Assembly: GCA_910577095.1 (NCBI GenBank)
Contig: CAJTLY010000004.1
Location: forward strand, 51,021 to 115,020
Origin: an uncultured Alphaproteobacteria bacterium
GTDB taxonomy: Bacteria > Pseudomonadota > Alphaproteobacteria > RF32 > CAG-239
Reading direction: 5' to 3'
DNA length: 64,000 bases
Shown here: piece by piece, positions 49,385 to 55,379 of the stretch
Numbering within the stretch: position 1 is the stretch's first letter
Layout of the letters: each line of letters opens with the position of its first letter
Position numbers and translations under genes: made by a program
Notes under the pieces: model-generated
Database searches by the model: none
What the model saw: only the letters and a program-made list of their open reading frames with translations
Told to the model about the DNA's origin: nothing

Positions 49385-51043
49385 ATGGCACCAGAACAAA
49401 CAACACCCCCTCCGGTCGAAAAAGAGCAGCCTCAACAGCAGGCCGCCGCTGTCAAAACGGGCGAAGGCAGTTCCAAACCTGCCGTAACGGTCAATCAGGG
49501 AGCCGAAAGACGAATTGCTGAAATCAACGAAATGCTGAACAACAAAGTTCTCAGCGTTGACGAACGTACCAAGTTGGAAGCCGAACGCGACCAACTTAAA
49601 GGCAGCAATGCGCAAGGTGCCACCAACCAGAGAAACGACGACGACGTCAAAGGCGATGACGACAAAAAGAACAGCTTCAAAGAAGACGACATCATTAAGT
49701 ACATGTATAACGAATGGATGATCGCCCTCTTCTGTTGGGCCGGCGGCAAAATCGAAAAAGCGGCGGGGACCGCTTATGCCCGCCTGGAACGCCGCATCAT
49801 CGAAGCCGGCATCAAACGTCGTGCCTTCGCAAAAAAAGCCAAAGGAACCAACACTTATAAGACTTATGAGAGTGTTTCCGAAATGCGCAAAAAAACCAGC
49901 GATGAAATAAAAAAACGCGATCACGGAAGACTCAAAAGCGTACAAGACATTGCCACCGCCATCGGCGAAGGCCGAATGACCGGCGATTCCGCTTCCGATG
50001 TTTTGGCTTTGGCCAAATATATGGGGGTTGACGCCGCAAACGTCAAAGAAGACTCCCGCACCAAAGAAATCATCGAGATGTCGCTCAGACACAAGGCGAT
50101 CAAAGACTCTCTGTATCAAACTCTCGGCATTTCGGCCGAAGAGGTCGCCCAAAATCCCAACCTGGTTCAGCAACGTATGAAAGCGCTGCAAAAAGACAAA
50201 GAGCAAAAAGAGCTTTTTGGCAATGCAAAAAGAATCTATACCGACATGGTCGCTTCACAGAAAAAGCTTTGCGAAACCGGCGGTCGTTTTGCCCTGCAGG
50301 AAAGCCGCCGCATCACTTTCGAATCGACGCTTGATCAATCTGCAGTCCTGATGGCAGAAGCCCAAATGCTCGACGCGGCTGCCAAAGACGGAAAGGCTTT
50401 TGCCGGCAAAGATCTGACCGAAGTCTTCAAAGCGCAAACAGAAACCGCCCGCGCTTCACTCACTCAGGTAACCGAAGCGGAAAAGAAGAGTTATATTGCC
50501 GGAACCAACCTTCAACAGCTCAATACGGCCGCACCGACCGGAATGAGACCGATTAAAACCAACGTTATGGGTTCTGTCGAAGACTATCACCGCATGGCAC
50601 AACGGGCTTCGAAAGCGTCACTGGGCAATATGCTGCACTTACGATTTGCCGAGATGGGCGTAAAACCCCACGAAAACGTTGCGCTTGCCAACCTTCATAC
50701 CAGTCTCACCAAGAAAAAGGGACAGCTCCGAGAAGAAGAGATCGATCGGGATTATCAGCGCGGTCAGCAACTCGAAGAAGCATATGCCCAACGCTCCGCT
50801 CCGCGCAACATGAGTGAAGAAGCCTCAGCCCAGGCTGCCAACGAACAGGAATTGCAGGCACGCCGCAATAATGTTGGTCAGCAGTTGGAAGCCAACGCCG
50901 CCCGTTGGAACCAACATATTGCCAGCCCGATTGCCGGACGTATTGCGACGCTTAAACGCGCCAAAGAAAAAGAATTGATTGCCGAGGGCGCAAGAACCAA
51001 CTTCCAAGGCTGGAGAATTGCTCCCCAGGGCAAAGAGATATAA
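49385..51043 (+). CDS. hypothetical coiled-coil protein (Gln/Glu/Ala/Lys-rich), first gene of the T4CP-containing cluster
   Basis: 552 aa with no signal peptide and a long predicted alpha-helical/coiled-coil composition. 2 nt upstream of the next gene. Confidence 0.45.
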   Translation: MAPEQTTPPPVEKEQPQQQAAAVKTGEGSSKPAVTVNQGAERRIAEINEMLNNKVLSVDERTKLEAERDQLKGSNAQGATNQRNDDDVKGDDDKKNSFKEDDIIKYMYNEWMIALFCWAGGKIEKAAGTAYARLERRIIEAGIKRRAFAKKAKGTNTYKTYESVSEMRKKTSDEIKKRDHGRLKSVQDIATAIGEGRMTGDSASDVLALAKYMGVDAANVKEDSRTKEIIEMSLRHKAIKDSLYQTLGISAEEVAQNPNLVQQRMKALQKDKEQKELFGNAKRIYTDMVASQKKLCETGGRFALQESRRITFESTLDQSAVLMAEAQMLDAAAKDGKAFAGKDLTEVFKAQTETARASLTQVTEAEKKSYIAGTNLQQLNTAAPTGMRPIKTNVMGSVEDYHRMAQRASKASLGNMLHLRFAEMGVKPHENVALANLHTSLTKKKGQLREEEIDRDYQRGQQLEEAYAQRSAPRNMSEEASAQAANEQELQARRNNVGQQLEANAARWNQHIASPIAGRIATLKRAKEKELIAEGARTNFQGWRIAPQGKEI

Positions 51044-51045
51044 AA

Positions 51046-51570
51046 ATGAAAAAGTTGGCACAATACCTGCGGCTGGCTCTGGTTATGGCCGGATGGACAG
51101 CTTTATACATCTGGATCATCGGCCTTGTTATGAATTATTTTTGGCATTTTGACATTTTCCAGAAACGTTACTGGGAAATCATCGGTGATTTTTGGCGGGA
51201 AGGCGGCGTCATCGACCAACCGTCCGAATATATGTTTTTATTCACTTTGCTGATGATCATTCCGATTTGGATTTTGGGCTTTAAAAAAGCCAAAAAATTA
51301 TCTTACGTCAAAATTATTTTCTTTCCCGTTTTTTGGTACCACGACTATATCGGCCGCAAGTATGCCGGTCAGCCGACACATATCGTACTGAAAAATATGG
51401 GCGGCGGCAAAGTTAAAAAACAGACACCGCAGCAAATGATGGAGGAAATGATTTCCAGCCGGATGCCTCAGGCAAAAGAAAAGAAAGATTTGAATTCCAG
51501 TAAAATACGCAGCAATTTTGAACAAAAAAACCGTAATTTTCACGAAAAGAAAAATTCCGGGGATTCCTAA
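51046..51570 (+). CDS. membrane protein, paralogous in its N-terminal domain to the next gene
   Basis: ...NYFWHFDIFQKRYWEIIGDFWREGGVIDQPSEYMFLFTLLMIIPIWILGF... aligns with ...RNWHFDILNLEHWNIAWDLWLNSWVISEPKEWAFVLIIISFIPLWFTGW... of 51639..53192. Confidence 0.45.
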   Translation: MKKLAQYLRLALVMAGWTALYIWIIGLVMNYFWHFDIFQKRYWEIIGDFWREGGVIDQPSEYMFLFTLLMIIPIWILGFKKAKKLSYVKIIFFPVFWYHDYIGRKYAGQPTHIVLKNMGGGKVKKQTPQQMMEEMISSRMPQAKEKKDLNSSKIRSNFEQKNRNFHEKKNSGDS

Positions 51571-53192: not shown

Positions 53193-53207
53193 TCAGAGGT
53201 GAATTAA

Positions 53208-55379
53208 ATGGGATTACAAAAAAGAGGCGAAGAATGGGAAGAATATGACCACGCCGTGCAATGGATGTCGCTGACCGTCATCATTACGCTGCTGGTTACG
53301 ATTTTTCTGGCGGTGATTTCGATGCCGCTCGGTTACATTATCGGAAACGGCATTTCCAAAGAATCGATCGACAACGTCGGCAAATTTTTGGGAATGATAT
53401 TTAACGATCCGTCTTATCTCTTCTCGCGTTACTGGAACTGGATGCGCCAAATCGGCAACTATCACGGCACCTTCAGCTTTTCGCTGTGGCTGCCGGTTCT
53501 GCCGATTCTGTCGCTGCCGATCGGTCTGATTGTCGGTGCCGTTACCAACCCCTATCGTTTTCAGTCCAACATCCACGGTTCCGGCCGCGTTGCAACGCTC
53601 AAAGACATAAAGTCGATGAAACTGTTGGACGGTTTTTGCATGGTAATCGGCAAGTTCAAGGGCTATTACCTTAAATTGCCGGAAACATTATCCACTCTGT
53701 GCTGCGCACCTCCGGGTACCGGTAAAACCGCCGGCGTGGTTATTCCGACTATTTTCAATTCCAAAGGCCTCAGCCTGGTTATCAATGACCCGAAACCGGA
53801 ATTGTGTTACACCACCTCCGGCGCCCGTGCCAAAGAAGGCCCCGTATTTATCATCAACTGGGGTGCCGAAGACAACCCGTCCGAGGGTCTGTATTACCCC
53901 AGCTGGAACCCGCTGTCTCCGACCGCATTGCCGGCCCCCGGCCCGGGTCGTGACATGTATGTCGACTCCATGTGCAATATTTTGGTAGAAGACCCGAAAG
54001 GCGGCGCCGATCCCCACTGGTCACAAACCGGACGTGCCGCAATTACCGGTTTTATTCACTTCATCGCCTCCAAATGCGAAAAAGCCCGTGCCAACGACTA
54101 TTTTCTGGGCCGGGTTTACGAAGGCAAACTGGACGAAGAAGACAAACAGGTTCTTGAAGGTTATTACGAAGAAATCAAAATGCACAACCCGGCTGCCGTG
54201 CGCGCCATCAACGACTTGCGCAACAATAACCTGACGGTGGAAAACTATGTGCCGATCGGCACCTGGGATCTGCTGCCCGAAAAATGGGTCGGACGCGAAG
54301 CCTGTATCGCCATGATCATGGAATGGCTGACCGAAGCGCAAATCAAACAGGGACAGGAAATCAAACGCCGTCTGGCCGAGGGCGACCAAATGGCTGCCAT
54401 GGCCGATCCGATGCGCGACTTGCTTGATTCCGCCATAGAAGAAGCGCGAAAATACGGCTATGCCCAGCGTGCCTATACCGAGCTTTCAACCTTAAGCAAC
54501 ATGCCGGATAAAGAACGCGGTTCGGTTATGTCAACCGCTTTTGCCGGCATCGGCGTTTTCAAAAACTCGGCCGTCGTTTCGCGAACCAGCTTTTCCGACC
54601 TGCAATTTAAAGATCTGCGCGGGATGAAAGATCCGATTACCGGCGAATGGAAACCGATTTCGGTTTACCTGTCGATTAACCAGGTCGACGCCCGGGCGTT
54701 GGGCGTTATCAGCGGCATCTTTATTGAATTGATGTCATCTTATCTGATTTCAAACCCGCCGAACTATGTCAACGCCACCGACGGCAAAATGGGACCGTTC
54801 CCGGCCTTGTTCGTCCTCGACGAGTTTCCGCAAATGCCGAAACTGAAAGCGGTTATTGACGGTCCGGCGGTCGGTCGCGGTCAAAAAGTATCATACTTGC
54901 TGATCGGACAAGATCTGGGCCAGATTTCGGGCAAATACGGTAAAGACGACCTTGAAACGGTTATCTCTACCACCGCCTGTAAAGTTATCTTGTCTCAGAA
55001 CAACGAACAAACGGCCCAGCGTTTTTCCAAAATGGTCGGTAACAAAACGGTTCAGACTTCTTCTTATTCCAAACAGGAAGGTTTTTCCAAACAGGCCAAC
55101 CCGTTCTCGAAAAACGTCAGCTACCAGTTACAAGGGGTTTCGGTTATTACCACCTCGCAACTGCTCAGCTTGCCGATGCTCAAACAGGTGGTCTTGTATC
55201 AAAGTTACATCGACCGGCCGATCATCGCCGATTCTCCGCGTTATTATCTCGATCCGAAGATGCGTGCGTTGTCAAAATTGCCTCCGGCCCCCAACGTTCC
55301 CGAATGGATCGTTGCCCAGCGCGAGGATATTAATGACAATATGCTCGAAAAATTGGGTCTCGACGACGACGAAGCTTAA
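53208..55379 (+). CDS. type IV secretion/conjugation coupling protein (TraG/TraD/VirD4 family)
   Basis: Two N-terminal TM helices. Walker A CCAPPGTGKTAGVVIP. Walker B LFVLDEFPQM. 723 aa. Confidence 0.75.
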   Translation: MGLQKRGEEWEEYDHAVQWMSLTVIITLLVTIFLAVISMPLGYIIGNGISKESIDNVGKFLGMIFNDPSYLFSRYWNWMRQIGNYHGTFSFSLWLPVLPILSLPIGLIVGAVTNPYRFQSNIHGSGRVATLKDIKSMKLLDGFCMVIGKFKGYYLKLPETLSTLCCAPPGTGKTAGVVIPTIFNSKGLSLVINDPKPELCYTTSGARAKEGPVFIINWGAEDNPSEGLYYPSWNPLSPTALPAPGPGRDMYVDSMCNILVEDPKGGADPHWSQTGRAAITGFIHFIASKCEKARANDYFLGRVYEGKLDEEDKQVLEGYYEEIKMHNPAAVRAINDLRNNNLTVENYVPIGTWDLLPEKWVGREACIAMIMEWLTEAQIKQGQEIKRRLAEGDQMAAMADPMRDLLDSAIEEARKYGYAQRAYTELSTLSNMPDKERGSVMSTAFAGIGVFKNSAVVSRTSFSDLQFKDLRGMKDPITGEWKPISVYLSINQVDARALGVISGIFIELMSSYLISNPPNYVNATDGKMGPFPALFVLDEFPQMPKLKAVIDGPAVGRGQKVSYLLIGQDLGQISGKYGKDDLETVISTTACKVILSQNNEQTAQRFSKMVGNKTVQTSSYSKQEGFSKQANPFSKNVSYQLQGVSVITTSQLLSLPMLKQVVLYQSYIDRPIIADSPRYYLDPKMRALSKLPPAPNVPEWIVAQREDINDNMLEKLGLDDDEA

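Follow-up and report, generated by a model that had tools for sequence, protein, structure and literature searches.

We propose that the type IV coupling protein (T4CP) gene described here belongs to a vertically inherited, functional chromosomal operon, in which a VirD4-type ATPase has been parted from neighbouring T4SS genes and is associated with lineage-specific partners. We put the probability of this reading at roughly 0.45. That the cluster is a functional core module rather than a remnant appears almost certain.

Organization of the operon

Four same-strand ORFs had been predicted and all were recovered, at the expected coordinates, on the + strand of the window (the whole 64-kb stretch of DNA that was analysed). 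These are p552 (nt 49385–51043, 552 aa), the first operon gene, p174 (nt 51046–51570, 174 aa), encoding a two-TM hairpin membrane protein, p517 (nt 51639–53192, 517 aa, TTG start), encoding a putative membrane-tethered nuclease-like protein, and the T4CP gene (nt 53208–55379, 723 aa), encoding a VirD4/TraG-family type IV coupling protein. Across orthologous loci, the median intergenic gap is 2 nt between p552 and p174 and 14 nt between p517 and the T4CP gene. A putative sigma-70-like promoter, detected by consensus scan in front of p552 (nt 49313–49341, +), is composed of TAGACA, a 17-nt spacer and TACTAT, with a TG ahead of the -10 hexamer; most of the close relatives listed retain the element ATAGACAAAAC...TA(C/T)(T/A)AT between p304 and p552. 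At the other end, a strong intrinsic-terminator-like hairpin (nt 55383–55403, +; 9-bp stem with 7 G-C pairs, then a T-rich tail) starts 4 nt past the T4CP stop codon and would mark the end of the operon.

Directly 5′ of the four genes lies p304 (nt 48372–49286, +), which is conserved at this position and encodes an acidic, soluble, all-helical protein without family assignment. It is preceded by a DUF6476 gene (nt 48044–48364, +; Pfam DUF6476, E 2.2e-8), the first gene on this strand past the divergently oriented rluD, whose product is a small membrane protein with one TM (residues 20–38). The housekeeping flanks were confirmed by Pfam, with rluD and rpoH upstream and arsR, xseB and ispA downstream. 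Elsewhere in the window, at 15–30 kb, a typical defence island is present.

Conservation and selection

A one-genome-per-species collection contained 368 relatives of the T4CP, the best 80 loci of which were fetched for comparison. In these best 80 of 368, wherever the upstream flank was present, the cluster adjoins rpoH-rluD and the gene order rluD, (DUF6476)-p304-p552-p174-p517-T4CP is kept; the genes 3′ of it vary by lineage, yet are always housekeeping genes. The DUF6476 protein was found by tblastn in 46 of the 80 loci, and of the 14 loci examined, 9 have ORFs of ~93–128 aa at the corresponding place. Its membership of the module is uncertain.

Median identity over the 80 loci was 78% for the T4CP, compared with 75% for RpoH and 64% for RluD. 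dN/dS values were 0.014–0.030 for the T4CP, 0.07–0.10 for p517, 0.04–0.13 for p174 and 0.21–0.32 for p552. All four ORFs are genuine genes kept by purifying selection, which is very strong for the T4CP. As judged by these comparisons, the cluster is a core operon of uncultured gut Alphaproteobacteria and is strictly conserved among them.

The fast-evolving p552 encodes a charged, probably helical protein rich in A/E/K/Q/R. Its size was as predicted but the 'coiled-coil' label originally attached to it was not supported, since a crude heptad test gave a result no better than shuffles. By tblastn, p552 was found in only 39 of the 80 loci, with a median identity of 31% over ~29% of its length, and orthologue lengths ranged from 427 to 725 aa in the loci examined. 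The sole conserved patch of this poorly conserved protein covers residues 98–121 (FKEDDIIKYMYNEWM..., nt 49676–49747).

The coupling ATPase and its subfamily

Pfam searches agreed with the proposed TraG/VirD4 identity of the 723-aa protein (T4SS-DNA_transf, E 7.7e-59; TraG-D_C, 9e-24; TrwB_AAD_bind, 5e-16). The Walker A motif GTGKT (residues 170–174, nt 53715–53729, +) and the Walker B motif VLDEF (residues 536–540, nt 54813–54827, +), both named in the original prediction, are invariant in 80 orthologues. The protein has two N-terminal TMs (residues 20–38 and 91–109) and an acidic C-terminal tail, LGLDDDEA. It scores far below every curated NCBIfam VirD4/TraG cut-off. Among solved structures, the nearest is that of H. 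pylori Cag5 (Cag-beta; profile match, E 3e-11) and only a marginal profile match was obtained with DotL (E 1.2e-3); on these profiles the T4CP is VirD4/Cag-beta-like rather than DotL-like.

The nearest plasmid relatives are alphaproteobacterial VirD4s located within full virB operons, with 33–35% identity over approximately the full length. VirD4s of the VirB/D4 systems of Erythrobacter aureus and Sphingosinicella megaplasmids have Pfam domains, two N-terminal TMs and Walker A/B in common with the T4CP of the window. In contrast to the latter, which is vertically inherited and without T4SS neighbour, their genes follow virB11 in complete virB2-virB11 operons, and the proteins do not carry its subfamily-specific ~60-aa insertion (residues 295–362, nt 54090–54293, +). 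This insertion marks a wider alphaproteobacterial T4CP subfamily to which the protein belongs. Sampled members all lie amid housekeeping genes, and upstream of each is a closely coupled partner gene, encoding the tethered nuclease-like protein in the lineage of the window and a pentapeptide-repeat protein in more distant relatives. In the sister lineage L090, whose T4CP is only 55% identical to that of the window, the order is RHH_4, TM-NERD orthologue and T4CP, the last two overlapping at stop/start. Since MOBC relaxases are PD-(D/E)xK enzymes and relaxosome accessory proteins are mostly of the RHH fold (PMC12857230), this order resembles an accessory-relaxase-T4CP transfer module.

In line with the original prediction, the genes called across the window include no T4SS or relaxase family. 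VirB2–VirB11 gave no tblastn match in the window, and no VirB2–B11 homologue was found in 2.7 Mb of flanks round 167 loci of the T4CP subfamily. The statement that no relaxase lies within reach holds for relaxase-family genes in the window, but has to be qualified in that the fold carried by p517 is of the same superfamily as MOBC relaxases (PMC12857230).

A membrane hairpin and a tethered nuclease-like domain

The paralogy suggested for p174 and p517 was detected by BLASTP between p174 and the N-terminus of p517 (E 2e-16, 27% identity over 126 aa). The common two-TM domain was also recovered, in a joint alignment too, two hydrophobic segments flanking a Trp-rich loop in both proteins. For p174, hydropathy and the positive-inside rule predict TMs at residues 10–28 and 61–79, a periplasmic Trp-rich loop and a basic cytoplasmic tail. 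The p517 hairpin covers residues 4–82 (nt 51648–51884, +). Public gene calls put the p517 start 21–28 codons downstream (489/496 aa), whereby TM1 is lost; the longer ORF is favoured because its N-terminus is conserved among orthologues and in the paralogue p174.

Downstream of the hairpin, p517 carries a conserved acidic/aromatic motif FKFDDNFDDLDFDIDAFE (nt 52209–52262, +), an RD/RE-rich linker (nt ~52347–52652, +) and a PD-(D/E)xK (NERD-like) domain at the C-terminus (nt 52689–53189, +). The linker is indeed highly charged, residues 201–350 including 45 R, 31 D and 19 E in 150, and the C-terminal globular domain expected from the original prediction was obtained as a confident structure model. 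This model shows a PD-(D/E)xK nuclease fold, and a fold search with the domain returns nucleases. NERD HMM matches were weak, occurring in 13 of 21 p517 orthologues and all under the Pfam gathering score; one relative has a precomputed NERD match. The acidic residues D379, D394 and E396 occupy the canonical beta2/beta3 positions and are conserved, also in L090, and a 30-residue invariant block, GDWLADEE...SPVRK, is kept throughout the p517 family. In p517 a Glu stands in place of the canonical Lys of (D/E)xK (D394-R/K-E396), so that catalytic activity is only a possibility and the domain may serve purely for binding. By the positive-inside rule, it would lie on the cytoplasmic side.

NERD (PF08378) proteins present a comparable restriction-endonuclease-like fold, with D on beta2, acidic-x-x on beta3, then G..W and SP. 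The p517 domain differs from them by its matches below the gathering score, by the Lys to Glu change and by its fusion to a TM hairpin and RD/RE linker. In the literature searched, we found no description of such a three-part fusion adjoining a T4CP. In the mobilisable plasmids CloDF13 (MobC/MobB) and pAD1 (TraX), a PD-(D/E)xK-superfamily protein adjoins a T4CP without a mating-pair-formation system of their own (PMC12857230). The likeness of the p517-T4CP pair to these rests on fold superfamily and gene adjacency. MOBC relaxases, encoded on plasmids and ICEs, are soluble and work at an oriT, whereas the p517 domain is membrane-tethered, chromosomal and vertically inherited, no oriT-like conserved site having been noticed for it.

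Alternative functions

The best-surviving alternative, itself rather unlikely, is that the operon encodes the coupling complex of an effector-translocating T4SS, with channel genes scattered elsewhere in the genome as are the rvh gene clusters of Rickettsiales. The T4CP would then be the substrate receptor, p517, p174 and p304 adaptor or receptor subunits like DotM, DotN, IcmS and IcmW, p552 a secreted effector, and the nuclease-like domain an inert protein-binding module. The exchange of the catalytic Lys for Glu is consistent with this, as is the fast evolution of p552 (dN/dS 0.2–0.3), often seen in effectors. As in Legionella Dot/Icm (dotM-dotL), the T4CP gene directly follows one whose product is an inner-membrane protein with TMs at the N-terminus (two, N-in/C-in) and a cytoplasmic domain, and the operon has further small partner genes. 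However, the DotL/DotM-like subcomplex originally considered stands only as an analogy of architecture and position: no match to DotM by sequence profile was obtained with the p517/p174 TM domain or with the p517 C-terminal domain, which has a PD-(D/E)xK fold, the T4CP does not appear DotL-like, and the operon has no T4BSS genes nearby. There is likewise no sequence or fold likeness to DotN or IcmSW.

A MAG annotated as 'Rickettsiales bacterium' is the source of the second-closest outside relative (50% identity), and Rickettsiales carry rvh. Canonical rvhD4 adjoins rvhB8-B11, whereas relatives of the T4CP of the window adjoin no VirB gene. Pentapeptide-repeat genes lie directly 5′ of the T4CP gene in relatives, and in Rickettsia the pentapeptide-repeat protein cREM-4, a candidate effector, binds the T4CP RvhD4 (PMC11077975), which favours a protein rather than a DNA substrate for the subfamily. 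That pairing was established by co-immunoprecipitation (PMC11077975) and the one in T4CP relatives by gene adjacency; in the lineage of the window, the partner is instead the TM-tethered nuclease-like protein. On the side of our main reading, there are bacterial pentapeptide-repeat proteins whose interaction partners are DNA-binding proteins, gyrase for one (PMC11077975). The lack of VirB2–B11 homologues in the 2.7 Mb round 167 subfamily loci argues against an effector T4SS, as do the strictly conserved acidic triad, unexpected in an inert domain, and a T4CP conservation equal to that of RpoH, unusual for an accessory secretion component.

Distinctly less probable is a T4SS-independent housekeeping machine, in which the T4CP would be a membrane-anchored DNA pump (FtsK/HerA superfamily) with a tethered nuclease, acting on chromosomal DNA at the membrane (segregation, clearance of dimers or trapped DNA, or uptake/export across the inner membrane only). 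The core-genome position, the essential-gene-like conservation and the lack of a T4SS gene near any subfamily member are in agreement with it, together with the replication/repair or other housekeeping genes neighbouring the relatives (MgsA/RarA, RuvB, dnaE, parB). TM anchor, long low-complexity linker and putative DNA-binding domain recall FtsK/SpoIIIE overall, as do the core-genome location and a P-loop motor that is anchored in the membrane and belongs to the same superfamily. This likeness is a functional analogy only, since the motor of the window is of the T4CP family, not FtsK_SpoIIIE, and linker and DNA-recognising module are on a separate polypeptide. Moreover, we know of no T4CP acting without a T4SS channel.

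Anti-plasmid or anti-phage defence, with a membrane-tethered nuclease and ATPase intercepting incoming DNA at the envelope, is very improbable: PADLOC and PHROGs gave no significant match (best, mad8, E 0.007), the module is universal at a fixed core locus and extremely conserved whereas defence islands are patchy, and the island at 15–30 kb looks quite different. Finally, T4CPs are normally part of conjugative elements and the closest T4SS-linked relatives are plasmid VirD4s, but the degraded ICE of the original prediction, or the remains of any other integrative element, conjugative or mobilisable, was rejected as having practically no likelihood, given the same rpoH-rluD position in the best 80 of 368 species-level loci wherever the flank is present, with no conjugative element, integrase, relaxase-family or VirB gene found there, the strong purifying selection (T4CP dN/dS about 0.02), the absence of an island-like GC break across the cluster and of homologues of the accessory genes in plasmid virB loci.

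Proposed mechanism

The third possibility originally raised, a domesticated T4CP in an uncharacterised system, is backed by everything found. The nearest T4SS-linked relatives are the VirD4s of conjugative virB/virD4 operons, and we count this probable origin in favour of a vertically inherited chromosomal operon.

From what is known of its family, the T4CP would assemble, as is usual, into a hexameric ATPase anchored in the membrane. p517 may dock on the T4CP transmembrane stalk via the conserved Trp-rich periplasmic loop and TM hairpin, as may p174, its truncated paralogue, and T4CP and p517 quite probably form a physical complex. p517 carries its NERD-like domain on a charged, flexible tether of ~200 residues, which would place it on the cytoplasmic side, where the domain could bind DNA at the ATPase mouth and perhaps nick or cleave it. 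The domain would by analogy be a substrate-selecting or -processing partner, as is the relaxase for a conjugative T4CP. DNA as the substrate is a tentative assignment, with slightly less than an even chance. The variable p552 and the conserved helical bundle p304 could serve as soluble adaptors or substrates, and the route past the inner membrane could be a T4SS channel with genes at another locus, or there may be no such route. Taken together, the operon most likely encodes a domesticated T4CP complex that processes or recruits a substrate at the inner membrane.

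Organization of the T4CP gene cluster

The four same-strand ORFs of the original prediction could be confirmed with their exact ends: p552 (49385-51043), p174 (51046-51570), p517 (51639-53192) and the gene of a 723-aa type IV coupling protein (T4CP, 53208-55379), all on the forward strand. The two membrane proteins preceding the T4CP are indeed paralogous, p174 being related to the N-terminus of p517 (BLASTP E-value of 2e-16 and joint alignment). Judged by hydropathy and the positive-inside rule, both probably form two-TM hairpins of N-in/C-in topology with a Trp-rich periplasmic loop. 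Beyond its TM domain, p517 has an acidic/aromatic motif that is conserved (FKFDDNFDDLDFDIDAFE), a low-complexity stretch rich in RD/RE and, at the C-terminus, a domain of roughly 165 aa for which AlphaFold2 gave a confident model, in agreement with the charged linker and globular domain described initially. Public gene calls give p517 a length of 489 or 496 aa, with starts at internal ATGs and loss of TM1 (51639-51722). The TTG start at 51639 is preferable: the additional N-terminal residues make up TM1, orthologues conserve them, and p174 has an equivalent segment.

Upstream, on the same strand, lie the genes of a single-pass membrane protein (Pfam DUF6476) and of p304 (48372-49286), a conserved acidic protein of 304 aa. 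A promoter-like element is located between p304 and p552 and is conserved in most of the close relatives listed, a strong terminator-like hairpin directly follows the T4CP stop codon, and the median intergenic gaps are 2 nt (p552-p174) and 14 nt (p517-T4CP). These signals suggest that the p552, p174, p517 and T4CP genes plausibly form a single operon and that p304 is its conserved neighbour. The p174-p517 spacer (51571-51638, and its equivalent in the closest related loci, L003-L008) includes a conserved element of about 45 nt (TAAAACACTTGTTAACCATCT...TACAATGG), possibly an internal promoter. In the more distant relatives L009 and L011-L016 this spacer is only 9-16 nt long.

None of p304, p552, p174 and p517 matched a Pfam, NCBIfam or PADLOC family, and PHROGs gave no significant match for them. 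The 552-aa protein had been described as a coiled coil; this was not borne out by a crude heptad scan of limited power, where no window exceeded the threshold and the result was no better than with shuffled sequences. p552 is a charged protein that differs in length among orthologues and shows little conservation apart from a single patch at residues 98-121. The model of p304 (pLDDT 83.8) is a helical bundle with a 60-residue helix, for which a fold search returned generic helical bundles only (talin rod and similar). A profile of the p174/p517 TM domain found no match in the PDB.

Genomic surroundings and local absence of T4SS genes

As initially noted, the cluster is flanked by housekeeping genes, rpoH and rluD upstream and arsR, xseB and ispA downstream. 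The claim that no relaxase or type IV secretion system (T4SS) gene lies within reach also stands: the precomputed Pfam assignments, which cover all called genes of the window, include neither a relaxase family nor a channel gene of the VirB/Trb/Tra type, and tblastn of the window with VirB2-VirB11 of the nearest T4SS-linked relative gave no match. The same search was negative for VirB2-B11 homologues in all 167 loci of T4CP relatives (2.7 Mb in total). The scope of this search is local, covering the window and the 167 loci with 10 kb of flank per side in the look-ups; within it, no T4SS channel (VirB4, VirB6, VirB8-11) accompanies the T4CP. The proteins did not match a known anti-phage defence system, PADLOC and PHROGs giving nothing significant: the sole PADLOC match was mad8 against the T4CP (E-value of 0.0074, 13.8 bits), with none for the other proteins.

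Elsewhere in the window, the region 15216-30305 is probably an integrated island, of the defence or mobile kind, adjacent to a tRNA gene (15230-15314, Rfam). Its genes include serine recombinase and resolvase genes (15216-16780 and 24629-25808), an Ank-repeat protein (18008-18634), a 1097-aa ResIII helicase (19043-22336), an Eco57I-like gene (22342-23328), an AAA_13 protein with RloB (25974-28988) and an AAA_15/AAA_21 ATPase (28992-30305). Four further ORFs belong to no Pfam family: two on the reverse strand of 766 aa (7889-10189) and 429 aa (32704-33993), and two on the forward strand of 281 aa (57017-57862) and 147 aa (58653-59096), both with a signal-peptide or lipoprotein-like N-terminus.

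A divergent T4CP within the VirD4/TraG family

The T4CP scored above the Pfam cut-offs for T4SS-DNA_transf (200.2 bits, cut-off 20.1, E-value of 7.7e-59), TraG-D_C (84.2 bits, cut-off 22) and TrwB_AAD_bind (58.9 bits, cut-off 20.5), the first and last being among the HMM searches that had been proposed as a check. Walker A (GTGKT, residues 170-174) and Walker B (VLDEF, residues 536-540) are both present and invariant in 80 orthologues, and two N-terminal hydrophobic segments (residues 20-38 and 91-109) provide the membrane anchor. By HMMs, motifs and topology, the protein is a VirD4/TraG family member, as originally assigned. It remained below every NCBIfam cut-off for VirD4, TraG and TraD and belongs to no named equivalog. 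The best score was obtained with the CD1115 family (152 bits, cut-off 250), followed by VirD4 PRK13897 (124 bits, cut-off 728) and IncP TraG (105 bits, cut-off 674). Being far under all these curated cut-offs, it is a divergent member of the family.

One alternative raised for the cluster was a DotL/DotM-like coupling subcomplex. In a profile search of the PDB, the nearest structure to the T4CP was Helicobacter pylori Cag5 (3e-11), before TrwB (7e-4) and DotL (1.2e-3), so that the protein lies nearer to VirD4-type proteins than to DotL. Homology of the upstream membrane protein to DotM was not found either: sequence-profile searches of the PDB with p304, the TM domain and the C-terminal domain matched none of DotM, DotN, IcmS and IcmW, and an OXA-1 match in these searches (E-value of 0.04) was taken as chance. 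The likeness to DotL/DotM is thus only architectural, and homology fails.

A nuclease-like domain in p517

Alignment of the p517 C-terminal domain revealed an invariant block, GDWLADEE.FN.EEPLWFSE.SH..SPVRK, and a second block, NIINA.DM. When 21 orthologues were scanned singly, 13 gave matches to NERD (PF08378), all below the gathering score (best E-value of 4.3e-4), and three matched a restriction-endonuclease family; p517 of the window itself had no Pfam NERD match. The AlphaFold2 model, built with 63 sequences (pLDDT 92.2, pTM 0.88), displays the restriction-endonuclease-like alpha-beta-beta-beta-alpha-beta core fold. D379 is located on beta2 and D394-(R/K)-E396 on beta3, each conserved at 90% or more, and the predicted active-site geometry is canonical except for a Glu at the Lys position. 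The same Lys to Glu substitution exists at the catalytic position of BamHI. By this fold, the domain belongs to the PD-(D/E)xK superfamily and is NERD-like, under the Pfam threshold, and because of the Glu in place of Lys it is only putatively catalytic.

A profile search with this domain recovered same-clade fragments and short gene calls, with no outside relatives. No match was found by tblastn in 72,556 plasmids, which argues against close homology to MOBC relaxases. In the CloDF13 record (NC_002119), the mob region is interrupted by frameshifts. Small plasmids carrying their own T4CP were also considered for comparison; the Ruegeria example was of MobQ type and irrelevant.

The locus is fixed and under purifying selection

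In a public assembly collection that covers, among others, ENA metagenome and Logan assemblies, 72 blocks index the identical T4CP sequence. A one-genome-per-species scan gave 368 T4CP relatives. The best 80 of these 368 come from MAGs of human, ruminant and chicken guts, mostly titled uncultured Alphaproteobacteria, 'Azospirillum sp. 51_20', Candidatus Scatocola or Rhodospirillales, with a few labelled otherwise (e.g. Lactobacillaceae or [Ruminococcus] gnavus). Wherever the flank is present in these 80 loci, the order rpoH-rluD, (DUF6476)-p304-variable protein-small TM-large TM-T4CP is kept. The downstream flank varies with the lineage and stays housekeeping (sigma factor, dnaE and parB, or gltX, recN and bamD).

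Across the 80 loci, the median identity of the T4CP is 78% (range 73-99%), next to 75% for RpoH and 64% for RluD; those of the other cluster proteins are 50% for p517, 49% for p304, 32% for p174 and 31% for p552. The dN/dS values are 0.014-0.030 for the T4CP, 0.07-0.10 for p517, 0.007-0.17 for p304, 0.04-0.13 for p174 and 0.21-0.32 for p552. Conserved order, identity and dN/dS together rule out a recently decayed integrative conjugative element (ICE), another alternative raised at the outset: the locus is fixed and under purifying selection, no integrase or relaxase family was found near the cluster with Pfam, and the proposed synteny check in related genomes showed the same locus in the 80, wherever the flank is present, with no complete conjugative element. 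The cluster is a vertically inherited core operon.

A chromosomal T4CP subfamily with alternative partners

The closest plasmid-borne relatives of the T4CP are VirD4s of alphaproteobacterial megaplasmids (33-35% identity), encoded by the last gene of complete virB2-virB11-virD4 operons; these virB loci include no homologue of the four partner proteins. One homologue search with the T4CP returned only relatives at least 96% identical, and a HMMER search of 1.84 billion representatives gave closer unnamed relatives of 38-56% identity, one of them annotated as a Rickettsiales MAG. No VirB gene was found around these within 10 kb or, on short contigs, to the contig end, and their contexts are all housekeeping. 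In the Rickettsiales MAG (locus L092), a 151-aa protein with a pilin-like hydrophobic N-terminus is encoded upstream of the T4CP (9503-9958); neither a NERD nor a pentapeptide partner was detected at this locus.

In a sister lineage (L090, 8483-12247), where the T4CP is 55% identical, the gene order is RHH_4 (a ribbon-helix-helix protein of 92 aa), a 387-aa p517 orthologue and the T4CP, whose start overlaps the stop of the p517 orthologue. The 387-aa protein shares with p517 the TM domain and the invariant block of the nuclease-like domain. p304, p552 and p174 are missing, and downstream of the T4CP come three small unknown genes, of 212, 144 and 115 aa. In more distant lineages, a pentapeptide-repeat protein gene directly precedes the T4CP gene, often overlapping it, as in L094 (8772-13042), L096 (8691-12187), L097 (7216-11334) and L111 (8695-12286), and in L139, L141, L142, L153 and L165, again without VirB genes and in housekeeping contexts. 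pepN often precedes the pentapeptide-repeat gene, and a prepilin peptidase gene (Peptidase_A24) immediately follows that of the T4CP in L093, L097, L139 and L141. A 599-aa gene before the pentapeptide gene of L111, considered as a p552 counterpart, encodes an unrelated lipoprotein. The upstream partners of this subfamily are thus interchangeable and translationally coupled.

Alignment showed that the T4CP carries an insertion of about 60 residues (residues 295-362, window 54090-54293) between Walker A and Walker B, missing from the plasmid VirD4s and probably situated in the all-alpha-domain region. All of 27 representatives, down to an identity of 25%, keep its signature ANDYF...YY...NY.PIG[ST]W..P..W.G unchanged, and it can serve as a marker of the chromosomal subfamily. 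Seeding a metagenome scan with this signature added 73 loci, of which many lie on gut contigs 100-570 kb long and none has a VirB2-B11 homologue. One typical locus has the order lipoprotein, pentapeptide-repeat protein, T4CP, MgsA/RarA, CrcB, zeta-like kinase, pseudouridine synthase and AsmA. These contexts and the absence of VirB place the window T4CP in a broad chromosomal subfamily that is locally unlinked to a T4SS.

Possible function of the T4CP module

The cluster combines an intact and strongly constrained T4CP with a two-TM protein, encoded upstream in tight coupling, that has a domain of PD-(D/E)xK fold, and with a truncated paralogue of that protein's membrane domain, and the p517-T4CP pair is conserved in a second lineage. 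We infer that the cluster proteins form a membrane complex, where the nuclease-like domain would be cytoplasmic, held on a flexible tether at the mouth of the ATPase. The domain may act as a substrate-processing or substrate-selecting partner, most likely for DNA.

Several observations favour a DNA substrate. The p517 domain has the nuclease fold and conserves its acidic triad, and the T4CP is of conjugative ancestry. The sister lineage has an RHH gene, and most accessory proteins of relaxosomes are RHH (PMC12857230). MOBC relaxases, PD-(D/E)xK enzymes that are paired with T4CPs, provide a precedent (PMC12857230). The alternative partner points the same way, as some pentapeptide-repeat proteins interact with DNA-binding proteins (PMC11077975). 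Against it count the Lys to Glu change in the catalytic signature, the lack of a known oriT-like site and the Rickettsia case, where a pentapeptide-repeat protein binding the T4CP RvhD4 is a candidate protein effector (PMC11077975).

As for the channel, the main rival explanation is that the proteins constitute a coupling complex serving a T4SS like rvh (Rickettsiales vir homolog), scattered elsewhere in the genome. The other reading is that the VirD4-like alphaproteobacterial subfamily with the ANDYF...PIG(S/T)W insertion has been domesticated for a T4SS-independent, near-essential role, the T4CP being a membrane DNA motor with no channel; we consider this unlikely, with a probability of roughly one in five. 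Under such T4SS independence, the T4CP would work with a tethered PD-(D/E)xK nuclease here and with a pentapeptide-repeat protein in other lineages, and DNA would be processed or moved at the inner membrane with no conjugation or secretion channel.

Our literature searches found no paper describing the operon of this cluster or the insertion-bearing T4CP subfamily, and we rate the module as new partners and a new genomic status on a known T4CP family. To our knowledge, the understanding of coupling proteins is limited to a gatekeeper role in type IV secretion and conjugation. The T4CP described here is core and vertically inherited, with sigma-factor-level conservation, no T4SS gene nearby and a putative membrane-tethered nuclease-fold protein as operon partner. 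Genome-wide profiling and experiments can start from the insertion signature and from the two alternatives for the upstream partner. Should the genome encode a T4SS elsewhere, the cluster would define a novel type of coupling complex, with receptor subunits unrelated to DotM, DotN and IcmSW, in a gut lineage that is prevalent but uncultured. If there is none, this T4CP would be the first to function without a channel, and would bear on the long-standing question of T4CPs as autonomous DNA translocases.
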